Part shown: positions 1-62,305 of the stretch, piece by piece
Layout: each line of letters starts with the position of its first letter
Numbering within the stretch: position 1 is the stretch's first letter
From: Squalus acanthias
Taxonomy: Eukaryota
DNA: 64,000 bases
Reading direction: 5' to 3'
Assembly: GCA_030390025.1 (NCBI GenBank)
Contig: CM059438.1
Coordinates: 9,796,001 to 9,860,000 of the forward strand
Position numbers and translations under genes: made by a program
The notes under the pieces: model-generated
Told to the model about the DNA's origin: nothing
The model's input: only the letters and a program-made list of their open reading frames with translations
The model's database searches: none

Positions 1-1467
1 ATATGGTACTGTAGTAGGTGGTCACCACTTGACTGTGGACCCAGCAATCCTACAGAAGGCTTCTTGGAAGTGTTGCCTCGATAACATGTTGCACATCTTT
101 TAGAAAATGTTCTGCAAAATAAGTCAAAAACACACACTGTTAAATGTGTTCTGATGAACTGAAGCTTTATGTAGCTAGTGTTACAGAATTTAACACAAAG
201 TATAGGATGCAGTGACTATAGTCTGGCTTCAAACCTGCTTTGACTGTACAGTAGAATATAGAAAAGCCATTTTTTCCTCCAGTCATACTGTGCTTGATAT
301 GTGCAACAGAAGGTAAAATGGATGCCGCTAACGTCAACAAAAACATTTTTTTGGATCAGGCTTTGCTGGCACTAAGGAGCATGGAAAATTGCCGCCATAA
401 GTTTGGCCTGTGCACTGCAATGTTAAACTTCAGTTGTGAGCCTAAATTTTTAAAAATAAATTCTTTGATGCCAGATGTTATCACATTGCCTTTTATTAGT
501 ACGGCTGAAGAGAAAGGTTTGAGCTTCAGGTTTTCCCCATATTCGACTGTAGAGTAGGATACGGTTTGCAGCAAGTCTACATTAATTGTATTCTATACTT
601 TGTTTTAAATTCTGCCGCATTTTATTACATAAACCTCCAGCAGAAATACCCACTTAGTTCAATGTCTGTTTATTTTAAGGAATGTTTTCTGAAACCTATG
701 CAACATGAAAATAGAAATGTAAATAATCTGCGAGATATTAAATTAATTTGCAAAAATTTGACTAGAGTATGGGGCTATATATGATCAAACATAATATCAG
801 ATTGATTAATGTTAATTTGATTTCTGTCAAACTTAATTCCTAATTGATCGCTATCGAGCTTAGTGTAATATGTGGATAAAACTGATGTGTTTGGCTTTAA
901 TTTGGTTTCATTGTATCTAAGAGCGTTCTCTTTTGTACCAGGGCTTTCTAAATATATGAAACATTAGAGGACTAGTTAAAGCACTAAGTGTATAATGTTT
1001 TTGTCTCCTTTTTTGTATGGTGCATATTATGCTGGGTTTTTGCACTTAAGATTTATAAAGTGGAAAAACATATGCCTCTGTGCTAGGATTATTAATATGT
1101 CACTTTGTAACCTGAAGACTTGATAACTCTGAGCAGCGTTTTATGTTCCAATTTTGGATTTACTGCATTTGCAGCTTGTCTCTTTCTCTCCCTCTCCATT
1201 TTTACCCCCATTCTCCACGTTTTCATTTGTGTGGGCTGTTTGTCTTCTCACCTGCTTAACTCTTTTCACATTCTGTTCTTTTTATCTCTCTCCACCACGC
1301 TGATCTTTCATATCATCTAAAAGCTTTTTCTGTTGAGCATTTTGGAGGTCATTCAACCCATTAACCCTCTCTGATTGGAATATCTGTTGATCCTTTCTCC
1401 CTCCTGCTTATTCTCTTCTCCCGCCCCCTTTATCCAAACGTATTCCAATTCCCGATTATCTTTTTAG

Positions 1468-1595
1468 TCTTCAGTTCTGATGAAGATACGCACCCAAACT
1501 GCCATCATCTGTCCTTTCCCTTTACAGATTCTGGGTGACTTGCTATGTATTTCCAGCATTTTCTGTTTTATTCCAGAATTTTCAGTATTTGCAGT
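1468..1595 (+). mobile_element. Degenerate Penelope-like element (PLE) 3' end
   Basis: cagttctgatgaag...acagattctgggtgacttgctatgtatttccagcattttctgttttattccag resembles the young copy at 59620-59750. Confidence 0.6.
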
Positions 1596-14858: not shown

Positions 14859-15794
14859 TTATCTGGTAATTCCTGCTGGAAAATTTGTGTGGAATTTGAA
14901 TGAGGACAGAAGAAATTTGAAAGAAAGAGAATTTAACACACAGCTGTGACTTAAAAAAACGTTTTTTAATACTTCGATCCTTCCTCCTAGTAGAAGCTTC
15001 ATTTATTCTTGTCTCTTGTAGTGTATTGATTGTGGTCTGAACTCGCTATATTGAATATATGTTTTTTAAATGACTATTAATGGTTGTCTTGATACTCATT
15101 GGTACTGGTTAGACTAAGCAGTGGGCAATTAAAAAGTAATTCTGATTTGGCTTAATTCCATTTAATCATATTAAGCTGGGATGCCCTAATTTGTGTTATG
15201 TTCGTCTGAGCCATTATTGAAGAGGAATGTAGGTTTAAGTAGGAATCAAATCTTGCTATAATTGTTGCAAAATTTAGCCTGAATAAGGTTAATTTGCAAG
15301 TTGGCTGATGTTATCAAAGCGCATCAGTGCAGTTTGATTTCTGATGCTGTTTTTTATGTCGGTTAGTTTTAATCTTGTAGGATCTGAACATTTTCACATT
15401 GCACCAAGTTATTTATTTATGTTGTAAGCTCTTTAGGTTGATTGTAGATGGGTTTCAGTGGTTTAAAATTTAAAAAAAACTTGCAATTGTGGAAGTGGAG
15501 CCATGTGGGGTGGTCCAGTGCACAACTACACAGAACAGGGTGTGAGATTGCAGATGCCCATGAGTTGAATTAGGATTTGCTGTCACAGGGAGTGAAGGCT
15601 AGTTTTAAAAGTGGGGGGGGGGGTGAAATTGGAGGGTGGGCAGTAGTGGCCTTTACATAGGGGGCCTGCCTGCTCTCTTGGTCAGAAAACTATTGGGGTT
15701 GTTGAAGAAAAGAGCCACAAAACACATTGAATGAAAAATTGTAACTCTATGTAGATGGAAAACAATACATTTTTGCAATTAAACAATACTTTTT

Positions 15795-15884
15795 CCAGTT
15801 CTGACGAAGGGACACTGTTTCTCTCTCCACGGATGCTGCCTGACCTGCTGAGTGTTTCCAGCATTAACTGTTGTTATTTTGGAT
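15795..15884 (+). mobile_element. PLE 3' end remnant with the hammerhead stem II/GAAA part deleted
   Basis: ccagttctgacgaaggg[deleted]...ctctctccacggatgctgcctgacctgctgagtgtttccagc. Confidence 0.7.
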
Positions 15885-16407
15885 AACAATAGCTTGTTTC
15901 ATACAGTAGCTGGTGAATTTGGTTTACATTTGCTTGTTTTTGGATGGGCTTAAGGAGCTAAGTATCCCTTATGAGTCACTCATGGAAAAATAGTTGCTCA
16001 TTACACTCAATAGATCAATAGGAATGAAAGGTTATATATTAGTCTTTAAAGCCAGAATGTTTTTAAATTAAGGGATATGGCCTTGTGGATGAATACTGGA
16101 GCCTGTTGTAAGGCGTTAACTTGGAATGTTACTTTAATGTGTACAACCTGCAAAACAAATGTTACGTCATGATCTATGTTGGCATATTTTAAAGTTGTAA
16201 AGTTCTAGTGTTGGACCACTTTTGAACCGACATGATTACACAGCAAAATTCAGCAGGTTGGTATTGTGGCAGTGTAATTTGAACTTTGTACATAAACCAA
16301 CTTTTTAAAAAAATTAAAGGGCTATATATTATTTGATGGAAGAGACGCTGTTTACCACAGATACATTTGTACACACAAATTGTGATTACATTATCAATAT
16401 GACCTAG

Positions 16408-17050: not shown

Positions 17051-17214
17051 TAGCCAAGAATCGGAAATCTAAAACTATGCTAGATCGTGTTTGATTTTTT
17101 TTCTCCTCTCCCACATAAACACTAGTGGAGGTGAAAGCTGAAGGTGTGGAAATATACTAGATTTCAGTGCTTTAGCTGATGCAGTGGTTTCTTCTGGCCT
17201 GAGCATGTTGCAAT

Positions 17215-17300
17215 ATGAAACAAAACACTGGAAATACACACCAGGTCTATTAGCATCTGTAGAGAGAAGACAAGTTAACATTTTGGGCGTATATGCTGCA
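17215..17300 (-). mobile_element. Degenerate PLE 3' end
   Basis: ctggaaatacacaccaggtctattagcatctgtagagagaagacaagttaacatttt resembles 59000-59065. Confidence 0.55.
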
Positions 17301-36424: not shown

Positions 36425-36652
<228 letters not shown>

Positions 36653-39600
36653 CTGAGTCGGAATGTTGCATACACTGTACAAAATATAAATTGCATTATT
36701 GTCATTATATATAAAAGCAATTTTACTAAGACAGCATTATGTGTTTCTGGTAATAGAGGAATCGTAGCCATTTAGAATTTTTAAAAAACCTGTAAAGAAT
36801 TACAGTGCTGGATCGAGGTTTCCTCGCAGAAGTAAATGATATATGTTAATGTGAGAAGTACAGTTTTTTTTGTTTGGGATGGGGGGGGATCTTGCAAAAT
36901 CATAAGCATGATTTTTTTTTTAAATAGTGTGCATTTAAGATACTGTTCTGTGTATTTAATACACAGTGTAGTATTTTCTTTACAATGAATTTTTTTGTGC
37001 TTAAAATGGCAGGCGTAGGACCTGGGGAATCCCTATCTGAAGAAGTAGGTGCCAGTTGCAGACTTGGTTTTTCCCGCTAGTTACCTTGCACCTTTGTTTT
37101 TCTGCCACTGGATTCTAAATCATGGTCATCATTGCAAAAGCCTGTAAATGCTCCAGGTCTGGCATTTTCCTTCATGTCCCAGTCTAACTCAGTAATTGAG
37201 GGAAGTCAGATTGTAAAGTCTAAAGATGGAAGGGAGGATTTAGGGAGGGGGGGGGGGGCGGTGGCAAAAAAAAGGCCGATTAAAGAATGGGAAGTAAAAT
37301 GCAAGGAAAGTTAGGCCGTAAAAGATTGAGAACTCACAAAAGACTTAAAAACAAAGGATGGAAAGAAAAATAAAACCAAAGAGAGAAATACAAAAAAAAG
37401 CAAATTGAGGCAAAGGATAGAAAGAGTTAAAGGTCTTCTCCCTACACAAGTGTTTTGTATATTTGACAAAGACTACTTAAATGGTTTCCTGGGAGTAAAA
37501 TGTTTTCCTTAAAAATAATTTTGCTATATTCTTGATCGTTTCCATAATTTTTGTCGTCCCCAAGATTTGCCACTTGATTTGAACAATGTTGTGATGCTGA
37601 CAGGCAATATGCGTATAATATGGATATACTGATCATGCAGTACATTGCTTCATAGTTTACCTGTATTATGACCTCTCTAGTATACACAGCAATATGGCTT
37701 TTAAAGTTTGTTACCCATTATTTTATCATTTTCTCCCATTGAGGGTCGAAATAGGAGCTTAAGAGCAAAGCAAATGGATGGTCCCAGACTCGGCTAATGT
37801 TTCCCTAAATGACTCGAGGGAAGGGTTCACATTTAATATACATGTAATACTTTTCCCATATAAAGTCTGAAGCACTTTGGGCCCTGGATACATACAAATG
37901 TATTCTCCCTCCCCCAAGTCCTGTGACAAAACCACCTTTTACTCAATACTTTTACAGCTTGCAAGCACGTGTGGTGATCTGTGTCAAGTCTGTTCAAGTA
38001 ATCCAAGGTTTAGTATTTTTACCTGTCCTTCATGTTGCATCGGCGCATGAAGCTATGTACGGAGGGCTAATTTTCCTCATACTGTACATTTTTTGCTGCT
38101 GCATGTATTTTTCCAAATACTTGTATGTGTGGGCTAATCAAGTGTGAGCATTTCCTTTTAGTTTCAGTTAATGTGAATACTAGTGCAGTAGAACCATGAA
38201 AAACGTCATGAAGTTTTTAGGAACCATTCTATAAATAATGAGATGCACATAGTATTGATACAAGCCAGTCTTTCTGTCCAGTATTCACTTGAGGAATGTT
38301 CCCCAGTTGGAAACGGTTGATTCATTCTCTGTACAGGCTATTACCAGTTGCCTTTTCTAAGTTAGTGTAGGTGCATATCACTGCATGTAGTCAGCATTTT
38401 TTTTGGATACAGGAAGGCTTTTACATCATCTGATTTGCACTCCTCTACCAAAAATATTGCTGCATTTTTAAGGCTTAAATTTCAGTGGTTAACTGAAAAA
38501 AAATTGCAATTTTTTTTCACTCCCCTTTCAAAAGTTGGCAAAACTCAGAAGTTGCACTGAAATGAAACCACTTCTGTGTCTCCTGCAGCAGTAAGGCGAT
38601 GCTCATTAATGAGCGAGTTGTCATTTGTCTACAGTTTGCTGTTGCTCTTGACTAATCCCAGATCAGTTTGTTAGTGGATGGCCACTTCAAGCCTTGCATG
38701 AAGCCATTGTAAGCTTATTGTCCAGGTCAATGTACTTGGTGTTGTCTTATCCCTTTCTAAGGGAATGTACTGTCCTGCAAAATTTACAAGGCAGAAATTG
38801 ATCTCTGTAAACCGAGGGCTATTTTACGGGTATCCTGTGTGGTCGCAGCCACGGAACGAGTTGTCTGCTTAATTGCAATCAAGATCACAACTTGGAAAAC
38901 TGTCAAAAGAGCTAATTTGTTGGAAAGAGTCCTTTAGCAGTTGTATACCTCTAGAATATCCCTGTATTAATTCAGTTTCTATCATGAAATATGTGCATCC
39001 CCTTTCAGTTTTACACTAGAGATCTAACCCCAGTGATGACAAACAAATTAGCGGCCACAATGAAACCTATTTTAAAGTTGCAAAAAAATGACATTAGAGC
39101 AGTATTCTTTAGATTGAATGCTTACTATGCTGCCACTGTAGGCTTTGTTGACTTGTTGTCGCACATAAACCTTTTCTCCCCAACGCGTATTGAGTAGACT
39201 GCCTTGTGCAATCGTAAAGAAGTTTCCATTGCAAAACAGTCACTGATTTGTACTTTGAATGTGAGCATAATTGAGCAAGGCTGCTGTGCTTGGTGGTTCC
39301 AAGTTTCGCCTTTGGCCCTAAGTATTCTACAAATCGGAAATTTTGGCATGCAGGAAGAATGAAAATGTAAAGTTTCTGTATTTAAAACATGTCAAGCAAA
39401 CAACAAAAACAGAGCATTGACTCTACACAGCAAAGTACTTTTAACTGCAGTGGACAGAATAAACTTAAATTCAGTGTAATTGTGGTTATTCCAGTGTATG
39501 AACTGTAGGGTGCTAATTGTATTGTTTTATGGCACATCAAACACTAGGAGATCGAGTGCTACATGTCAATTATTTTTTATTATCTAAAGTCTGTAGAAGA

Positions 39601-45415: not shown

Positions 45416-46153
45416 GGCCCAACATTTGCGGTCGGAGGCTTCCTGCGGACGGATACCTCCGATCTGTAAAATATCTACGCATTGACCTGGTGGCCCGGGA
45501 GGTATGGAGGCTTGCGATCCTGGGCGCCTCCGACTACGCGCGGGTAGAGGCCCACGTATCCCAGGGGTGCAGGTGATTTGCAAGCGACCCTGGGATCACG
45601 TGGACCGGCCCAACCAATAAAAGAAGGGAATCCCCATTCATACTTATGGGAGTTCCGTACATACGGAACTCCCATAAGTATGAATGGGGATCACTTAAAA
45701 AAAAAAATACACGAACACATGAATTTTTTTTAAATTATATATTTAAAATTAGTTAAAATGCCATTTAATTAAATATTTTAAATTTTTTTTTAAAAACCGG
45801 GCTAAAAAATAAACTTGCCTTATTGGACAGGGTTTTGTATAAATGAGTGATAAAATGTAATTTTTCTATTTTTAAAACTCTTATGCTGCTAAAAGCAGGC
45901 CTTACGCCTGCTTTCACCAGGCGTACGAATTCACGGGCATTCAGCGGGTGGAAGTTGGGCAAATAGCGCAACTCTCCACCCGCAGAGGCCCATCTCCCGG
46001 GGATGTGGAGGATCTGTCAAGAGGATTCTTGGCAGATCGCAAGTTCCGGGTTTTAGCGCATGCGCTTCGCATGCCTAAACCCAGAATTTTGCACGGCCCC
46101 AACGGGCACGTGCACACCTCATACGCACCCGTAGGGGTCACAAAATACGGCCC
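45416..46153. mobile_element. PIF/Harbinger-type MITE inserted next to an L2 RT remnant
   Basis: TIRs GGCCCAACATTTG / GGGCCGTATTTTG (reverse complement); flanks AAT/ACT. The left end is homologous to the right end of 21539-22249. The flank at 45280 reads like a degenerate YADDTQL. Confidence 0.75.
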
Positions 46154-49580: not shown

Positions 49581-52079
49581 ATTTTTAAAAAATAGGAGCA
49601 GGAATAGGCCTTCAAGACTGTGAAGGGCTGAATGTCCTACTTTGGAGGACATTATAGTTGACATAGTTGAGCCTGTTCTTGTGTGTAATGCAGGGACGTG
49701 CACTTATCATCGGATGATGGTCAACAGTGGAAACCATGGCCATATCTTGTTTTGCTTTTTTTCTTCCTAGCTCCAGAAATTTGAGGCCATTTGTTCCTCT
49801 GCCACTAGGTGCTATCAGTGGACACAGTACCAACCAGGGATTAAAACTGACGTCTTCATCTGCATGGCTTGGTGCCACATCATGCTGTGCATCGACCCAG
49901 TGAGCCATTGGTTGAGCCATGGGCGTTTCATTGTTTCCTTTGGAAGTGATTTTATCTGACCACAGGTTTAAAATTGACTAGTGGACTTAATTCCCTTGTT
50001 TGTGTTACTCCCTGGCGGGGCAGGACCCATGAGGAAAAGTAGCTCTTGTTATTTCTTGGACACATATGGAGAAAGTGTTCCTCAAAGCCATCTATTCAGC
50101 TTCCTGGAGTAGTAATGTCTTCACTTAATAACTCACCAGGCAGCACACTGTTTCATTAAAAAAAAATGCTGTTGATTTTCCCCTTTTGGGATTCTGGCTA
50201 TACCAGAAGGGGCCACAGACCAGAACTAGAGTATGTAGTAACATTCATTTAAAGTAGATTTTTTTTTTGGGGTGGGAGGGGTGCAATGGATCCAATAGGA
50301 ATAAGAATGTTTAAGGATAAGGGCAAATATGTTTAAGACATGTAAGGAACATTAAAAGGAAGTTTTCAATATTCCATATACTCAGCAAAAGTACTCAACT
50401 TGACAGCACAAACATTTGAGCGGAAAGTGGGCAAGAGATCGATGGAACTAATGTGAGGTAGAATACTTTGCAAGAGTAGACCTGTTAAATAGAGTGGAAT
50501 AGCAGAATTTTAGGAAGGGCAGTTAGAGGGAGAGGTGGCAAAAGCCATGTGGATGGGAATTCTTAATGAAAGGGATAACTATGGGCTGGATTTTCACATT
50601 GGAGGCGGGTTGGGTGCGGGGCAGGTGGCCGGCGGGTCCCGAACCCGCCCCCGTTGTCAGGTCAGAAAAAACTGAGATTTTACCCTAATTGGCCAATTAA
50701 TTCCAGGCGTGTGGGTTCCCCTGTGCCAATTAGTGTTTTGGGACTGAAACTCACCTCTGCTGCTGCCACTTATCTAGCTGGATTGAAGGCCTCCAAGCTG
50801 GCTTGTTCCCTATGCGCCTGTTTTGCTGATACTGTGGAAGCCTGGGGATCCTGCCTTCATCGGTGATGTCAAGATTCACTGATGACTCCCTCCAAGTGTT
50901 GGTAGAGGGAGTCACAGCTAACAGGAGGTGCTCTTCCCTTCTTCTGGGAGGAAGAAGACTCCTCAGCAGACAAAAGCTGTATGGCTTCAGATCGCGAGGG
51001 AAATGAGCAGCAAGTCGGTCTGCAGCAGAACCTGGCTGCAGTGCCGTAAAAGGTTCAATGACTTTGTTCGAACAGGAAAAGTGAGTAGAGCATCACCTTT
51101 ACCCTCATTCTGCTCCCCATCTCCTCTCCGCACCAGCACTCTGCATTGTCAACCTACTCCTACACATCCCACTGTACCCTTACATGCCTTGCACCCCTAA
51201 CCATCCCTCTCTATGTTCACAAGCACTTCACTATTCGACTATGCTGCCCTCACACTCCCTATCACAGTTATGCACTGACAACAACTACCAACACCAGTGG
51301 TATCTGCACCTCGCTCCATCCCTGTCTCCTTCTAAACATCTGCTCTGGAATCTCTACACTCACTCCATCATCTCAGTCAAACTCCACTTGTCTCCCTGCT
51401 GGAAAAGAGCCCACAATAAGCGGGAAAGGACGAGGACAGGAGGTGGGCCACCCTCAATAGCCTCCTCAAATGCTGAGGAGGCGGCCCTGGAAATCGTTGG
51501 TGCTAGCCTGGATGTGGAAGTGGGGGGCGGACAGACGGGCACAGAGGAGCAAGCTGGTGACCGAATAGTTTTGAGAGATCTCATTTACATTGCATGAGTG
51601 ACTGAAATGGCTGCTGATGTTCATACTGATTGATGATTATCTGCACAACTCCATGTGAGTGCTACATTAATATCAGTTGTCTAACTCATGCCTTTACTCC
51701 ATCACAGGGCCATCGACATTCCCCCCTCGCCAGTGTCCCGGAGGAAGAAGGCGACCATGAAGACTCCTCAGAGGAACCTGCAACCTCTGAGGGCGCAGCG
51801 TCAGCAGATGTAAGCGCACCCAGCACTAGCGCAGATACACACACCTCAGTGGGACCCTCGCGACATAGAGTAGTGTTGTCACCTGGTGTATCACCGCTCA
51901 CAAGTGAGCATCAGCAGATGGTGGAGACGGGGCCAGTAGCGGAGGGTCCTCGTCAGAGGTCACAGGACTCCTAGCTCTGCTCAGCTGCATGTGGACCCTG
52001 TGCCTCCAAGTCCATACGAAAGGAGAGTGGTGCTGGAACTCCAGGAACAGGTGCAGGAGTCTCTGGCAGGTTTTGTCTC

Positions 52080-52643
52080 ATGACTGGCACCATGACTGGC
52101 TCTGTTGCAAAGAAGGGAGGGAAAAAGAGTGGCAGGGCTATAGTAATAGGGGATTCGATTGTAAGGGGAATAGATAGGGGTTTCTGTGGTCGCGACCGAG
52201 ACTCCAGGATGGTATGTTGCCTCCCTGGTGCAAGGGTCAAGGATGTCTCGGCGCGGGTGCAGAACATTCTGGAGGGGGAGGGGGAACAGCCAGTTGTCGT
52301 GATACATGTTGGTACCAACGACGTAGCTAAAAAAAGGGAAGAGGTCCTACAAGTAGAATTTAGGGAGTTAGGAGCCAAGCTAAAAAGTAGGACCTCGAAG
52401 GTAGTAATCTCTGGATTACTACCAGTGCCACGTGCTAGTAAGAGTACAGAGAACAGGATAGTTAGGCTAAATACGTGGCTTGAGCAGTGGTGTAAGAGGG
52501 AGGGTTTTAAATTTTTGAGGCATTGGAACCAGTTTTGTGGTAGGTGTGACCTATACAAAAGGGACGGTCTACACCTGTGCAAAGATGGAACTGATGTTCT
52601 CGGGGTAATTTTTGATAAAGCAGTTCGGGAGCATTTAAACTAG
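52080..52643 (+). CDS. CR1 ORF1 C-terminal part, SGNH/GDSL esterase-like domain
   Basis: Motifs IGDSIVRG, LPGA, HVGTND and DGLHL. Confidence 0.9.
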   Translation: MTGTMTGSVAKKGGKKSGRAIVIGDSIVRGIDRGFCGRDRDSRMVCCLPGARVKDVSARVQNILEGEGEQPVVVIHVGTNDVAKKREEVLQVEFRELGAKLKSRTSKVVISGLLPVPRASKSTENRIVRLNTWLEQWCKREGFKFLRHWNQFCGRCDLYKRDGLHLCKDGTDVLGVIFDKAVREHLN

Positions 52644-55585
52644 TATGGCAGGGGGCTAGAAACCTATGTAGTGAAATAGAGGAAAGTGAAAGGCAGACAG
52701 AAATAAATGGTAAAAGGGTGAGGAACAAAAAACAAAGGGCCAAACTAATTCATAAAAAATGTGAGCATAAAAAAAGCCTGAGGGTTTTATACCTTAATGC
52801 GAGAAGCATCAGGAACAAGGTAGATGAATTAGCTGTGGAAATAGAGGTTAATAATTATGATCTAATTGGGATTACGGAAACATGGTTGCAGGGTGAGCAG
52901 GGCTGGGAGCTTAACATGCAGGGGTATTCAGTATTTAGGAAGGATCGACAAAAAAGAAAGGGAGGAGGGGTAGCATTGCTGGTAAAAGAAGGGATAAATG
53001 CAATTGAAAGGAAGGATATTAACTCAGTTAATACAGAATCTATATGGGTGGAGCTAAGAAATAGCGAGGGGCGAAAAACATTAATAGGAGTGGTATATAG
53101 GCCTCCAAATAGTAAAATAGAGGTTGGGGAGGGCATCACGAGGGAAATAAGAGAAGCGTGCAATAAGAGCACAGCTGTCATCATAGGTGACTTTAACTTA
53201 CATATAGATTGGAATAGCCTAATCAGTAAAAATAATGAGGAGGAGGAATTCCTTGAGTGTTTAAGGGATGGTTATCTGGATCAATATGTCGAGGAACCAA
53301 CTCGGGAACAGGCTATATTGGACTGGGTACTGTGCAATGAGAAGGGACTAATTAGTAATCTTGTTGTACGGGGACCCTTGGGTCAGAGCGATCATAACAT
53401 GATCGATTTCTCACTCGAAATGGAGAGCGAAGAAATTGACTCAGATACTAAGGTCCTGAATTTAAACAAGGGGAATTATGATGCCATTAGACGGGAACTG
53501 AGTAGGTCTGATTGGACAACGTTCCTGGGAGGACTGGAGGTAGATAAACAATGGCAAGCATTTAAAGATAGAATGACAAAATTGCAAAAATTGTTTATAC
53601 CAATCTGGCATAAAAGGAAATCTAAAAAGGTGACTCAACCGTGGATAACAGGGGAAATTAGAGACAGCATAAAATCCAAAGATAGGGCGTATAAAATAGC
53701 CAAAAAAAGCGCCAGAGCGGAAGATTGGGAACAGTTTAAGATGGAGCAAAGGAGGACAAAGGGCTTAATCAAGAGGGGCAAAATAGCTTACGAAAGCAAG
53801 CTGGCGGAAAATATAAAAACTAACTCCAAAAGCTTTTATAAGTATATCAAGAGGAAAAGACTGGTGAAAACCAAAGTTGGCCCATTGCAGTCAGATACGG
53901 GGGAATATATAATGGGAAATAAGGAAATGGCAGACCAACTAAATGCATACTTTGGGTCAGTCTTTACGAAGGAAGACACAAAAAACCTCCCTGGGATATC
54001 GGGAAAAATAGGGACATTTGCAAAGGAGGAACTGACGCAAATCAATATCTCTAAGGATATGGTGTTAAGGAAGCTAAAGGGATTGAAGGCGGACAAATCC
54101 CCAGGGCCTGATAACATGCATCCTAGGGTGCTGAAGGAGGTGGCCCTAGAGATAGCGGATGCACTAAGTATGATTTTTCAGAATTCATTAGACTCGGGAA
54201 CAGTGCCCATGGATTGGAGGGTAGCTAACGTTACCCCACTATTCAAAAAGGGGGGTAGGGAAAAAGCAGGTAATTACAGACCTGTAAGCCTTACATCAGT
54301 TGTGGGCAAAATGCTGGAGTCCATCATTAAGGATGAAATAGCGGAGCACTTAGCAAATGGGGACAGGATAGAACAGAGTCAACATGGATTTACAAAGGGT
54401 AAATCGTGCTTGACTAATCTATTGGAATTTTTTGAGGGAGTAACTGGTAAAATAGATGGGGGAGAGCCAGTAGATGTGGTGTACCTGGACTTCCAAAAGG
54501 CCTTCGATAAGGTCCCACATAAAAGATTAGCAGGGAAAATTGAAGCTCATGGGATAAAGGGGAAAGTATTGACGTGGATAGAGAACTGGCTGTCAGATAG
54601 AAAACAGAGAGTTGGAATAAACGGCTCATTTTCTGAATGGCAGGCAGTAACAAGTGGGGTACCACAGGGATCTGTCCTGGGTCCCCAGCTGTTCACAATT
54701 TACATTAATGACCTGGATCAGGGAGTCGGATGCAGCATTTCCAAATTTGCAGACGACACTAAACTAGGAGGGGGGGTGGGCTCAGAGGAGGAGACCAGGA
54801 AGCTCCAGAGCGATTTGGACAGACTGGGTGATTGGGCGGATAAATGGCAGATGCACTATAATGTGGACAAGTGCGAAGTTATCCACCTTGGGTGCAGGAA
54901 CGGGAGGGCAAATTATTATTTAAATGGCAATAAATTGGGAGAGGGGGAAGTACAGAGAGACCTGGGTGTTCTTGTACACCAGTCACTGAAGGCGAGCATG
55001 CAGGTGCAACAGGCGGTCAAGAAGGCAAACGGTATGCTGGCCTTCATAGCAAAAGGGTTGGAATACAGGAACAGGGATACCTTGCTGCAGCTGTACAGGG
55101 CACTGGTGAGACCACACCTCGAGTACTGTGTACAGTTTTGGTCGCCTCATCTGAGGAAAGATGTTCTTGCCATGGAGGGGGTGCAGCGGCGATTCACCAG
55201 GCTGATACCAGGAATGGCGGGATTGACCTATGAGGAGAGACTATGTAGTTTAGGGATGTACACACTGGAGTTTAGAAGATTGAGAGGGGACCTCATAGAA
55301 GTGTATAAAATTCTGACAGGTCTAGACAGACTAGATGCAGAAGGAATGTTTCCCTTGGCGGGTGAGAACAGAACTAGAGGACATAATTTAAGGATAAGGG
55401 CTAAAACATTTAGGACAGAAATGAGGGGGAATTTCTTCACTCAGAGGGTGGTGAACCTGTGGAACTCATTGCCACAGAGGGCAGTGTACGCCAGCTCATT
55501 AAATATATTTAAGAGGGAATTAGATATATTTCTACAGGCAAAAGGGGTTAAGGGTTACGGAGAGAAGGCGGGGATGGGATACTGA
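52634..55585 (+). CDS. CR1 ORF2: APE endonuclease + reverse transcriptase, intact frame
   Basis: [47 protein letters not shown] and FADDTK. The frame is open from 52619 with no stop to 55585. Confidence 0.95.
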   Translation, partial: FKLVWQGARNLCSEIEESERQTEINGKRVRNKKQRAKLIHKKCEHKKSLRVLYLNARSIRNKVDELAVEIEVNNYDLIGITETWLQGEQGWELNMQGYSVFRKDRQKRKGGGVALLVKEGINAIERKDINSVNTESIWVELRNSEGRKTLIGVVYRPPNSKIEVGEGITREIREACNKSTAVIIGDFNLHIDWNSLISKNNEEEEFLECLRDGYLDQYVEEPTREQAILDWVLCNEKGLISNLVVRGPLGQSDHNMIDFSLEMESEEIDSDTKVLNLNKGNYDAIRRELSRSDWTTFLGGLEVDKQWQAFKDRMTKLQKLFIPIWHKRKSKKVTQPWITGEIRDSIKSKDRAYKIAKKSARAEDWEQFKMEQRRTKGLIKRGKIAYESKLAENIKTNSKSFYKYIKRKRLVKTKVGPLQSDTGEYIMGNKEMADQLNAYFGSVFTKEDTKNLPGISGKIGTFAKEELTQINISKDMVLRKLKGLKADKSPGPDNMHPRVLKEVALEIADALSMIFQNSLDSGTVPMDWRVANVTPLFKKGGREKAGNYRPVSLTSVVGKMLESIIKDEIAEHLANGDRIEQSQHGFTKGKSCLTNLLEFFEGVTGKIDGGEPVDVVYLDFQKAFDKVPHKRLAGKIEAHGIKGKVLTWIENWLSDRKQRVGINGSFSEWQAVTSGVPQGSVLGPQLFTIYINDLDQGVGCSISKFADDTKLGGGVGSEEETRKLQSDLDRLGDWADKWQMHYNVDKCEVIHLGCRNGRANYYLNGNKLGEGEVQRDLGVLVHQSLKASMQVQQAVKKANGMLAFIAKGLEYRNRDTLLQLYRALVRPHLEYCVQFWSPHLRKDVLAMEGVQRRFTRLIPGMAGLTYEERLCSLGMYTLEFRRLRGDLIEVYKILTGLDRLDAEGMFPLAGENRTRGHNLRIRAKTFRTEMRGNFFTQRVVNLWNSLPQRAVYASSLNIFKRELDIFLQAKGVKGYGEKAGMGY

Positions 55586-58040: not shown

Positions 58041-59051
58041 TGAATAAGTGTGTGAAGCAAGAATTATTGCAGGAAATAATGTGATAGTCAAAGGACCATT
58101 GGTTTTCATGGAACTGTAGGATGTAATCTCCAAACACTGGTAAAAATCCTGGAGTCCCATATTATAAAAACTGATTTATGACTTAGTCACGAAAAGCCAG
58201 AGGCTCTGACCATGGGAGCTTTCATTGTGTTGGAGCTAGAGTGGCGATAATCAGGACAAGCTAAAGGCAAAAGTGAAAGCACAGGCTGTTTCATAGCGGT
58301 AATTGTAGGTTGTGTCTTAACAAGTGAAGTAGGGTATTAGGCTAGATGCTATAATAGAATTTTTTTAATTCACTTTAAAGAATGTAGAAAGGAGAATGAG
58401 AAAAGCAGCAGGAACACGATCACAGCGGCTGGAAAATGAGGTCAAAAACAAAGGCTTAGTATAATCTTTTAAAAGATGCAAGAAAAGTAGCAAGCCCTGG
58501 GACTTATGCCCAAGTTTGTTGAAAGTAACTAAAAAGGAGTATTTGAAGTGAACAATAAGTTTTCAGAATATATGGCAAAAGGATCTGAAGAAATTCCTTT
58601 TATGTAAGCAGCCAATCTGGGCATTTTTAAGCAGTACATTGTGATACTTATTGAAGTATTGGTATGGCAACCAAAGCCAGAATGCCCTGGATGACGAAAG
58701 CGACAGAGAGCAAGGTGAAGCAGAAAAAGGGGGCGTATGACAGATGCCAGGTTGAGAATACAAGTGAGAACCAGGCTGAATATAGAAAGTTCAGAAGGGA
58801 AGTGAAAAATGAAATCAGAGGGGCAATGAGAGTATGAGAATAGATTAGCAGCTAACATAAAAGGGAATCCAAAAGCCTTCTATAGGCATATAAATGGTAA
58901 ACGGGTATTAAGAGGAGGAGTGGGGCCGATTAGGGACCAAAATGGAGACCTATGCATGGAGGCAGAGGGCATAGCTGAGGTATTAAATGAGTAATAACAG
59001 AAAACGCTGGAAAAACTCAGTGGGCCAGACAACATCCGTGGAGAGAGAAAG

Positions 59052-59088
59052 AGTTAACGTTTCAGGTCGATGACCTTTCGTCAGAACT
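59052..59088 (-). ncRNA. Minimal type I hammerhead ribozyme motif (mirror copy)
   Basis: Exact reverse complement of 59622-59658. Confidence 0.75.
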
Positions 59089-59621
59089 GGGAAGAGCCGG
59101 AAATCAAATAGATTTAAGGCCAGGGTAAAGCTGGGAAAAGGGGGAGGGGATAAAGGAACAAAGGGGGAGATGAAGAAACATTAAGAGACATTAAGAGATA
59201 TGCAAGGCTAGAGGTGGTGTTAATGTGACAGATTAAGGCTGAAAGAAGTGTGAAATCCACTGGCAGAATGAAGGACAGCTGCCAGCTTCTAGGAGGGAAA
59301 AAAAAGGTGGGGGGGGTGGCAAATAAAAGGGTGGAAAAAATAAAATATAAATGTGATTGGCACATTTATATTTTATTTTTTCCACCCTTTTATTTGCCCC
59401 CCCCACCTTTTTTCCTCCTAGAAGCTGGCAGCTGTCCTTCATTCTGCCAGTGGATTTCACACTTCTTTCAGCCTTAATCTGTCACATTAACACCACCTCT
59501 AGCCTTGCATATCTCTTAATGTCTCTTAATGTTTCTTCATCTCCCCCTTTGTTCCTTTATCCCCTCCCCCTTTTCCCAGCTTTACCCTGGCCTTAAATCT
59601 ATTTGATTTACGGCTCTTCCC

Positions 59622-59658
59622 AGTTCTGACGAAAGGTCATCGACCTGAAACGTTAACT
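59622..59658 (+). ncRNA. Minimal type I hammerhead ribozyme motif
   Basis: agtt-CTGACGA-a-aggtc(atc)gacct-GAAAC-GTT-aact: core boxes, 5-bp stem II, palindromic ACGT stem III and 4-bp stem I. Confidence 0.75.
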
Positions 59659-59890
59659 CTTTCTCTCTCCACGGATGTTGTCTGGCCCGCTGAGTTTTTC
59701 CAGCGTTTTCTGTTATTTTGGATTTCCAGCATCCGCAGTATTTTGCTATCGTATTAAATGAGTACTTTGCATCTGTCTTTACCAAGGAAGAAGATGCTGC
59801 CAAAGTCATAGTGAAAGAGGAGCTAGTTGAGAAACTGGATGGGATAAAAATTGATAAGGAGGAGGTACTAGAAAGGCTGGCTGTACTTAA

Positions 59891-61594
59891 TACTTTGTTT
59901 CTGTCTCCACGGAGGAAGACACAAAAAACCTCCCACAAATACGAGAAAACCAAGGGTGTGGCAAGAATGAGGAACTTAAAGAAATTATTATTAGTAAAAA
60001 AACAGTACTAGCAAAATTAATGGGACTAAAAGTCGATAAATCCCAAGGACTGGATGACCTACATCCTAGGGTTTTGAAAGAGGTGGCCATTGGGATAGTG
60101 GATGCATTGGTTGTCATGTTCCAGAATTCTATAGATTCTGGAATGGTTCCTGCAGATTGGAGGATAGCAAATGTAACCCCACTATTTAAGAAAGGAGGGA
60201 GAGAGAAAACGGGGAACTACAGACCTGTTAGCGTCACAGCAGTAGTTGGGGAAAATGCTGGAATCTACTATAAAGGATGCAATAACTGGGCACTTAGAAA
60301 TTAAGATTGGGCAGAGTCAACATGGATTTATGAAAGGGAAATCCTGTGTGACAAACCTATTGGAGTTCTTTGAGGATGTAACTAGTGGAGTAGACAAAGG
60401 GGAACCGGTAGACGTGGTGTATCTGGATTTTCAGAAGGCCTTCGATAAGGTCCCACACAAGAGGTTGGTGAACAAAATTAGGGCACATGGAATTGAGGGT
60501 AATATACTAGCATGGATTGAGAATTGGTTAACAGACAGAAAACAAAGAGTAGGGATAAACGGGTCTTTTTCAGGATGGCAGGCTGTGACTAGTGGGGTAC
60601 CGCAAGGATTGGTGCTTGGGCCCCAGCTATTCACAATCTATATCAATGATTTGGATGAGGGGACTAAATGTAACATTTTCAAATTTGCTGATGATACAAA
60701 GCTAGGTGGCAGTGTCAGTTGTAAAGAGGCTTCAAGGGGATCTCGACAGGCTCAGCGAGTGGGCGAGAACATGGCAGATGGAATATAATGTGGATAAATG
60801 TGAAGTTATCCACTTTGGTAGAAAAAACAGAAAGGCAGAGTATTTCCTAAATGGTGAAGATTGGGGAATGCAGATGCTCAAAGGGACCTGGGTGTCCTTG
60901 TACATGAGTCACTGAAAGTGAATGTGCAGGTGCAGCAAGCCATTAGGAAGGCAAATGGTATGCTGGCCTTCATTACAAGAGGATTTGAGTACAGGAGTAA
61001 AGAAGTCTTACTCCAATTATATAGGGCCTTGGTGAGACCACACCTGGAGAACTGTACAATTTTGGTCTCCTTACCTAAGGAAGGATATACTTGCCATAGA
61101 GGGAGTGCAATGAAGGTTCACGAGATTGATTCCTGGGATGGCGGGACTGTCGTATGAGAAGAGATTGAGTAAACTAGGCCTGCATTCTCTTGAATTCAGA
61201 AGAATGAGAGGGGATCGCATTGAAGCATACAAAATTATTACAGGGCTTGATAGGGTGGATGCTGGGAGAATGTTTCCCTTGGCTGGGGAGTCTGGAACCA
61301 GGGGCCACAGCCTCAGGATAAAGGGTAGGCCATTCAGGACTGAGATGAGAAGAAATTTCTTCACACAGAGGGTGGTGAATCTTTGGAATTCTCTACCCCA
61401 GAGGGCTGTGGAGGCTCAGTCATTGGGTACATTCAAAACAGAAGTCGATAGATTTCTGACTAGTAAAGGCATCAAGAGATATGGCGATAGGGCCGGTGAA
61501 TGGAGTTGAGGCAGAAGATCAGCCATGATTTCATTGAATGGCGGAGCAGGCTCGAAGGGCCGAATGGCCTACTCCTGCTCCTATTTTGTATGTT
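59891..61594 (+). mobile_element. Nested 5'-truncated CR1 (same family as 8802-11165)
   Basis: Frameshifted RT ORFs at 60020-61509; tail ctattttgtatgtt; TSD CTTAA (59886 and 61595). Confidence 0.93.
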
Positions 61595-61766
61595 CTTAAA
61601 GTAGATGAGTCACCAGGACCGGATGAGATGCATCCTAGGATACTGAGGGAAGTAAAGGTGGAAATTGTGGAGGTACTGGCCGTAATCTTCCAATCCTCCT
61701 TGGATACGGGAGTGGTGCCAGAGGACTGGAGAAATGCAAATGTTACACCCTTGTTCAAAAAAGGGT

Positions 61767-62305
61767 AGAAACATAGAAACTAGGTGCAGGAGTAGGCCAT
61801 TCGGCCCGTCGAGCCTGCTCCACCATTCAATACGATCATGGCTGATCATCCAAATCCAGTACCCTGTCCCTGCTTTCTCACACAGAATCCCCATCGAGCC
61901 TGCACCGACACATATCCCACCCTATCCCCGTAACCCCACATATTTAATTCCCCCTAACATATCCCATCCTATCCCCGTAACCCCACATATTTAATTCCCC
62001 CTAACATATCCCATCCTATCCCCGTAACCCCACATATTTAATTCCCCCTAACATATCCCATCCTATCCCCGTAACCCCACATATTTAATCCCCCCCTAAC
62101 ACTAAGGGTCAATTTATCACAGCCAAATCAACCTAACCCGCACATTTTTGGACTGTGGGAGGAAACCGGAGCACCCGGAGGAAACCCACGCAGACACGGG
62201 GAGAATGTGCAAACTCCACACAGACAGTCACCCGAGGCCAGATTCGAACCCGGGTCCCTGGCGCTGTGAGGCACCAGTGCTAACCACTATGCCACCGTGT
62301 TGCCC
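61767..62305 (-). mobile_element. HE1-like V-SINE with an internal minisatellite and a CR1 tail
   Basis: Reverse complement gggcaacacggtggcatagtggttagcac...gggttcgaatc, then the V-domain gtggagtttgcacattctccccgtgtctgcgtgggtttcctccgggtgctccggtttcctcccaca; TSD GGT. Confidence 0.9.
61910..62098. repeat. 4 x 47-bp tandem repeat
   Basis: Unit ACATATCCCATCCTATCCCCGTAACCCCACATATTTAATTCCCCCTA; copies are nearly identical. Confidence 0.97.

Follow-up and report, generated by a model that had tools for sequence, protein, structure and literature searches.

How a near-perfect inverted pair of repeat copies came to be lodged inside a CR1 retrotransposon is the question raised by positions 58980–59764 of the 64,000-nt (64-kb) stretch of Squalus acanthias DNA analysed here (the window). 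A preliminary description of this locus proposed a Penelope insertion produced by a single recent event, in which the cDNA folded back or switched strand. Our analysis indicates that the foldback consists of two head-to-head, 5′-truncated 3′ ends of a hammerhead-bearing high-copy repeat, likely made in one event, and that the repeat, judged from its structure, is likely a Penelope-like retrotransposon (PLE). No other long foldback with a short spacer is present in the window. The coding exons of SHOC2 (plus strand, 16420–36652) lie at about 16.4, 18.9, 20.4, 25.0, 34.2, and 36.4 kb, and the last of them ends the protein. With the last SHOC2 coding residue at 36649, the foldback is situated about 22 kb downstream, in a nest of LINEs; placement in a SHOC2 intron was rejected, as the locus is that far beyond the last coding exon. 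Several smaller repeats were noted in the window: a 62-bp near-perfect palindrome (45630–45691, 96.8%) without spacer and unlike the arm, a 26-bp perfect A/T-rich palindrome (38494–38519), a tandem array of 47-nt units (61863–62142), and an old inverted pair (85–259 and 539–707), 68% alike and 280 nt apart. The parts of the locus are as follows:

58821..58993, plus strand: matched part of the host CR1 ORF2 fragment on the left side of the insertion (E 6e-10 in a tblastn search with the CR1 ORF2 of the window)
58980..58993, plus strand: left copy of the target-site duplication (TSD), an exact 14-nt match that duplicates CR1 ORF2 codons
58993..59360, minus strand: inverted tail-less arm, starting at the inner terminus (equivalent of 59717) and reaching 5 nt further toward the element's 5′ end than the right arm, these 5 nt being the loop
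59356..59360, minus strand: ATTGG loop of the hairpin, which comes from the element, reads antisense on the top strand, and joins the right arm bluntly with no microhomology
59361..59717, plus strand: sense arm, the 5′-truncated, non-coding, pyrimidine-rich 3′ end of the high-copy repeat (pLTR-like)
59533, plus strand: T shared by both arms, C in the family (contig depth, arm comparison)
59718..59750, plus strand: one-sided tail of 33 nt, on the right arm only
59751..59764, plus strand: right TSD copy, an exact 14-nt match
59751..59890, plus strand: host CR1 ORF2 fragment right of the insertion, broken at 59890 by a second CR1 and resuming at 61595

The foldback is a 757-nt insertion in which the left arm (58993–59355, 363 nt) is the reverse complement of the right arm (59361–59717, 357 nt). 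The two are 97.8% identical by blastn (E 7e-179), and the longest perfectly paired stretch between them measures 196 bp. Two substitutions (59100/59610 and 59021/59689) set the arms apart, as do two indels of 3 nt each, located in C and T runs near 59297–59319, where the right arm is shorter; these gaps may represent slippage or consensus error. The arms of about 360 bp with few substitutions and homopolymer indels, as initially described, were thus borne out. The unpaired extension was also found on one side only, yet it covers 33 nt (59718–59750) and not the roughly 34 nt counted earlier from 59717. Five letters, ATTGG, do separate the arms, but they are not a mere spacer: they are family sequence, the reverse complement of the letters that precede 59361 elsewhere. 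The copy holds no ORF of the element and, to judge from its sequence, is likely inert.

The 14-bp TSD, GTATTAAATGAGTA, is duplicated at the two ends over exactly 14 nt, with no extension on either side, and has no further occurrence on either strand of the 64-kb window. Eleven of its 14 bases are A or T. The probability of such a duplication arising by chance was calculated to be 1.3e-8 when the offset is fixed and 2e-5 when a slack of 20 nt is allowed on either side. The left boundary of the insertion is ambiguous by 1 nt, because the last A of the left TSD copy also pairs with T59717. The left flank aligned to residues 387–442 and the right flank to residues 441–489 of the window's intact CR1 ORF2 (52619–55585), which carries RT and endonuclease domains. 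As the flanks match consecutive residues, the host is collinear across the duplication and the duplicated bases are CR1 coding sequence; the earlier claim of an exact TSD interrupting a CR1 was therefore confirmed, at 14 of 14 nt. Loose contig ends before 59751 (see the contig data below) represent the uninterrupted form from other copies of the CR1 family, not an empty allele of the foldback locus. The surroundings hold two further CR1 copies. One, 5′-truncated, is nested in the host CR1 at 59891–61594 between 5-bp duplications (CTTAA, at 59886–59890 and 61595–61599), and contigs of the host CR1 family continue as at 61595, beyond the nested element. The other, at 51975–55585 on the plus strand, is seemingly intact, with a GDSL-esterase ORF1 and a 988-codon ORF2.

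To place the arm in its family, contigs from three sets of one organism (two samples) were aligned to positions 59320–59930 (611 nt), which contain the right arm, 41 nt of the left arm, and the CR1 flank; an empty-site joint would not show up on this stretch. Four of 22 runs were used in all, and the fourth, X21 from a different organism, gave 8 reads and was uninformative. Between 17,940 and 26,859 contigs per set aligned to this stretch, CR1 flank included (3/3 sets), and the summed contig depth, which is not a copy number, was near one million over most of the arm. On this evidence, the arm is a member of a very high-copy repeat family. Contig depth drops about 7- to 24-fold from the bin 59425–45 to the bin 59362–82 across the three sets. 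Family copies extend upstream of 59361, where one of the loose ends listed (9 contigs of run X5, agreement 0.88, with 884 further loose ends outside the listing) reads into letters ending in CCAAT. Among the contigs listed for 59320–59930 none crosses the foldback centre; contigs drop rare variants. Of the 11 joints listed, two connect an antisense to a sense arm, skipping 57 and 136 nt and adding 2–3 letters; another, 59623/59713 between opposite strands, allows two readings and was left out of the reasoning on loop direction. We also observed that hundreds of contigs leave the arm at 59620–59623, the 5′ edge of hammerhead helix I (285, 107, and 138, one run), for mixed upstream sequence (agreement 0.33–0.53). 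Either truncation is favored at this point, or there are sister families that have just the hammerhead and the 3′ remainder in common with the arm.

An nhmmer search with the part from the hammerhead to the tail gave seven matches in the window: the two arms, three older copies (E <1e-4), and two weak ones. Four older decayed relatives of the same 3′ end could be aligned (nhmmer, alignment):

1123..1176, plus strand: older decayed relative
1472..1595, plus strand: older decayed relative
15789..15887, plus strand: older decayed relative
17209..17290, minus strand: older decayed relative

Two of the four stop near the inner terminus, while the other two run into the tail (one weak, E 0.35). In the relative at about 15.8 kb, part of the hammerhead is gone.

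Each arm carries a hammerhead motif, and a stem was predicted downstream of the right-arm copy:

59622..59658, plus strand: minimal type I hammerhead motif of the right arm (core scan; descriptor in the excerpted text of PMC4209133)
59052..59088, minus strand: left-arm minimal hammerhead motif, with the same sequence as in the right arm
59673..59734, plus strand: predicted RNA stem (59673–80 with 59727–34) enclosing the inner terminus 59717; a weak prediction, as the region has a fold z-score of only −0.87

These two motifs were the only matches in 64 kb of a hammerhead-core scan requiring a helix II of at least four pairs. Shuffled controls gave a mean of 0.05 matches, and 5 of 100 shuffles contained any (helix II of at least five pairs). 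The right-arm motif comprises a 4-bp helix I (59622–25 with 59655–58), CUGACGA at 59626–32, a bulged A at 59633, a 5-bp helix II, GAAA at 59647–50, and, where helix III would otherwise stand, a palindromic ACGU; the cut site is predicted after 59654. The features of metazoan PLE hammerheads are thus present: the CUGANGA and GAAA boxes, the bulge between 9 and 10.1, helix I of 4 bp, and the palindromic 15.2–16.2. The 10.1–11.1 pair is A-U in both arms and not G-C, though still paired and purine-pyrimidine; G10.1–C11.1 is described in the available part of PMC4209133 as highly conserved in minimal hammerheads, outside the descriptor. An Rfam search over the foldback returned no hammerhead family, and its 57 matches (E up to 10), mostly to miRNA hairpin models and all below the gathering score, were rejected as a hairpin effect. 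Since the two motifs lie on opposite strands, they should not form a dimer within one transcript. A transcript of the whole foldback is predicted to fold at about −699 kcal/mol, and any RNA transcribed through the locus would contain a perfect duplex of as many as 196 pairs; cruciform extrusion of the DNA is conceivable in principle. The earlier suggestion of a cruciform, or of dsRNA and endo-siRNA, found no support in our results.

An inverted 5′-truncated copy, a one-sided tail of 30–40 bp, and a TSD are together typical of PLEs in the portions consulted of PMC8557442, PMC3846280, and PMC8969392. The foldback displays a terminal repeat with a minimal hammerhead motif, an inverted 5′-truncated copy directly at the 5′ end (the family continuing upstream of 59361), a tail of 33 nt, within the 30–40-bp range, at one end only, and a TSD of the variable-length kind at an AT-rich site (14 bp, 11/14 A/T). 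All structural tests of a PLE insertion fit, and on this structure the assignment is very likely. The Penelope-type reading first suggested by the inverted truncated copy, the one-sided tail, and the TSD is hence upheld and strengthened by the hammerhead in each arm, by the signs of a single template, and by the case against an artefact (both below), and we are highly confident that the locus is a single Penelope-type insertion.

We also looked for a parent protein. The GIY-YIG domain was found in none of the 43 ORFs scanned for domains, out of 84 window ORFs of at least 95 aa, and the RVT_1 matches beside the locus align with CR1 ORF2. A DNA pattern of the arm had no matches in metagenome contigs, viral contigs, or prokaryote genomes, which is uninformative, as vertebrate DNA is not expected there. 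The 74-aa open frame of the arm matched none of 45 candidates in a protein search. An ATG at 59675 opens 25 codons through the tail (59675–59750, plus strand) and is kept in two older copies. The 31-aa frame that begins there had no atlas match; a search of 1.84 billion representatives gave a single match, to a surface protein rich in repeats (35% identity), which was rejected as chance. In PAc (PMC11167929) and Pen2a_Av (PMC3846280), as excerpted, the ORF starts inside the terminal repeat, and by analogy the ATG at 59675 may be the ORF start of the element. No open-licence paper was found on the 34-bp tail in D. virilis.

Several marks in the arms bear on how the pair was made. A T stands at 59533 in each arm, whereas C makes up more than 99.9% of the family's contig depth at that position (3/3 sets; 946,093/946,093.1, 727,027/727,250, and 1,132,314/1,132,371). 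Shared against the family, this T means that the arms stem from one template or were later homogenised. It could mark a small source subfamily, or be a consensus error; its near-absence from contigs does not mean that the locus is absent, as contigs drop rare variants. At 59610 the family C is the left-arm state, so that the right arm changed; at 59689 no other letter is listed in contigs, so that the family G is the right-arm state and the left arm went from CpG to CpA. Each arm has therefore changed on its own, by about 0.3%, and the insertion is young. ATTGG is the reverse complement of the CCAAT that stands before 59361 in the family, and the loop thus belongs to the left, tail-less arm; this assignment draws on the one listed loose end (9 contigs, one run) and one joint running through 59360. 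The turn shows no microhomology: the 60 nt before it do not offer even a 2-nt match.

These marks agree with the preliminary description in two respects, one template (T59533) and youth, yet loop direction and tail together speak against its simple single fold-back. On the bottom strand, which corresponds to the tail-primed cDNA, the loop reads in sense and so is not obtainable by simple fold-back of that cDNA. On the top strand the loop continues the tail-less cDNA, which, we infer, cannot supply the tail. A single fold-back could thus account for the loop direction or for the tail but not for the two together, and the locus must have involved a second priming event or been edited afterwards. 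The excerpted text of Frangieh et al. (2024, PMC11167929) describes how the Poseidon element PAc, from Anolis carolinensis, cleaves both DNA strands and extends each of them; AT-rich targets are preferred, and reverse transcription begins at two neighboring positions that delimit the tail. Because of this behavior, we favor priming at both nicks.

In the route that we propose, the element's GIY-YIG endonuclease would nick the AT-rich CR1 site on each strand, with 14 nt between the nicks. The left nick would prime cDNA at the inner start site (59717 equivalent), of which about 367 nt would be made, giving an arm without tail. The end of this tail-less cDNA would then turn back over a 5-nt loop and copy itself, producing the sense arm. 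The right nick would prime at the outer start site, supply the 33-nt tail, and anneal to the new sense strand; fill-in would generate the TSD, and the arms would later drift by two substitutions. For the full route, in which both nicks prime, the tail-less cDNA turns back, and the tailed cDNA joins, we see the chances as evenly balanced. The more specific version, that the inner-primed cDNA closes a hairpin without homology, copies itself, and is captured by the tail-bearing cDNA from the other nick, is advanced tentatively. The turn-back of the tail-less cDNA is favored by the offset of 5 nt, by the loop direction, and by the T59533 common to both arms, and the window's older relatives, which fall in both end classes (2/4 at the inner terminus, 2/4 into the tail), would count for two start sites; the missing microhomology at the turn is awkward for self-priming.

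A fold-back could be dispensed with altogether if both nicks primed on the same RNA, at the inner and outer sites, and the two cDNAs stalled independently near the U/C-rich stretch before their ends were repaired. This twin priming with end-joining accounts equally well for the TSD and the tail and suits the blunt joint without microhomology; the family joints that skip 57 and 136 nt with 2–3 extra letters look as joints of two independent cDNAs would, and the 7- to 24-fold drop in depth fits a stall zone, but equally variable homopolymers. Over about 360 nt, however, its two truncations would have to fall no more than 5 nt apart, the shared T59533 would have to come from the source copy, and the loop direction would be correct only half the time, so that we regard it as unlikely. 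The present centre might also be secondary. Long palindromes are stabilised by central deletions, and a longer or perfect one, made by any route including fold-back of the tailed cDNA, could have lost its middle asymmetrically, in keeping with the blunt 5-nt asymmetry, or the arms could have been homogenised by conversion, which would account for T59533. Differences specific to each arm persist along the arms, so conversion was neither recent nor complete, and we find such an origin improbable. An older published view, proposed in the excerpted texts of PMC3846280 and PMC8557442, puts the hairpin first: an antisense transcript primes itself, and the endonuclease resolves the hairpin, removing the tail of one arm in the process. 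Under this view the tail-less arm should carry the loop in antisense and the two arms should have a variant in common, both of which were observed, yet the published model rests on palindromes at the joint, none of which exists here, and in vitro work attributes the tail to two start sites (PMC11167929, in the part available); we judge it quite unlikely.

The insertion itself might be questioned as well. A mirrored read or a mis-joined contig could have given the second arm: no spanning contig was among those listed, the homopolymer gaps and the shared T59533 could be consensus errors, and PLE inverted structures are known to trouble assemblies (PMC8557442, excerpt). Past the second arm, however, come the tail, the collinear CR1 flank, and the exact 14-bp duplication, with no mirrored flank, and relative to the family each arm carries a substitution of its own, with 5 nt in the left arm that are missing from the right. 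The earlier argument that the exact TSD and the one-sided tail speak against an artefact accordingly holds, the sequence continuing into tail and collinear CR1 flank, and an assembly or library artefact is highly improbable. We think it just as improbable that the locus is of non-Penelope origin, although no link to an RT or GIY-YIG protein was obtained. A foldback DNA transposon or MITE was rejected, since the 33-nt overhang keeps the inverted repeat off the right end, so that the repeats do not abut the TSD at both ends, and single-arm relatives are dispersed in the window. A LINE twin-priming inversion was rejected too, as the arms overlap fully, duplicating rather than partitioning sequence, there is no poly(A) or simple-repeat tail, and the arm does not match CR1 ORF2. 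Against an unrelated hammerhead repeat stands the minimal hammerhead of PLE type in each arm; a non-LTR retrozyme (bioRxiv 10.64898/2026.07.22.740005, as excerpted) needs tandem direct hammerhead units, and those of the foldback are inverted. The fold-backs covered by the accessible part of PMC7058536 are of chromosome scale and were set aside.

The origin of Penelope inverted pairs is called unresolved in the excerpted PMC8557442. As an object, the foldback is one more, likely inert, copy of a known layout, and its value lies in the evidence that it provides. If the proposed turn-back of the tail-less cDNA is true, young head-to-head pairs should always have the loop antisense on the tail-less arm and first-strand errors common to both arms, a rule applicable to the thousands of family copies in the genome. 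Loop direction relative to the tail, together with variants shared by the arms, would turn the origin of inverted pairs into a genome-wide count. We found no statement of this rule in the open-licence literature, which misses most subscription papers.

In LINE-1 twin priming, two nicks prime one RNA and yield a 5′ inverted segment inside one TSD, the inverted piece being the upstream neighbor of the direct piece. In the foldback, by contrast, the two arms span one and the same sequence, and poly(A) is absent. Its structure is an ordinary example of an already described layout. Pen2a_Av of Adineta vaga (PMC3846280) and the general scheme of Craig et al. (2021, PMC8557442), both as excerpted, likewise have an inverted 5′-truncated copy beside a direct one. 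The optional tail at one end measures 31 bp in Pen2a_Av, 30–40 bp in PLEs in general, and 33 nt here (same excerpts), and the TSD around the whole unit 8–10 bp in the A. vaga cases (PMC3846280) and 14 bp here. Unlike what these excerpts describe, the foldback lacks an ORF as well as a palindrome at its joint, and because both of its copies are non-coding 3′ ends of almost equal length, it forms a near-perfect hairpin. With PAc, as far as the excerpts of PMC11167929 go, it shares the AT-rich target and the order of a hammerhead followed by two alternative 3′ termini bounding the tail. Measured from where helix II begins, the tail ends at 117 nt, and the start sites of PAc fall at 111–118 nt, possibly by coincidence; the tail is T-rich here and AC-rich in PAc. 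The excerpts on PAc do not take up head-to-head joints. The foldback family is known here from non-coding DNA. The minimal hammerheads of metazoan PLEs (Cervera and de la Pena, 2014, PMC4209133, in the passages available) match those of the foldback in core boxes, in the bulge before helix II, in the 4-bp helix I, and in the palindrome replacing helix III. The latter differ from that type in A10.1–U11.1 instead of G-C and have a helix II of 5 bp. Hammerhead pairs on opposite strands, 100–700 bp apart, are reported in the same excerpts, and the two motifs of the foldback, about 540 bp apart, fall within that range.
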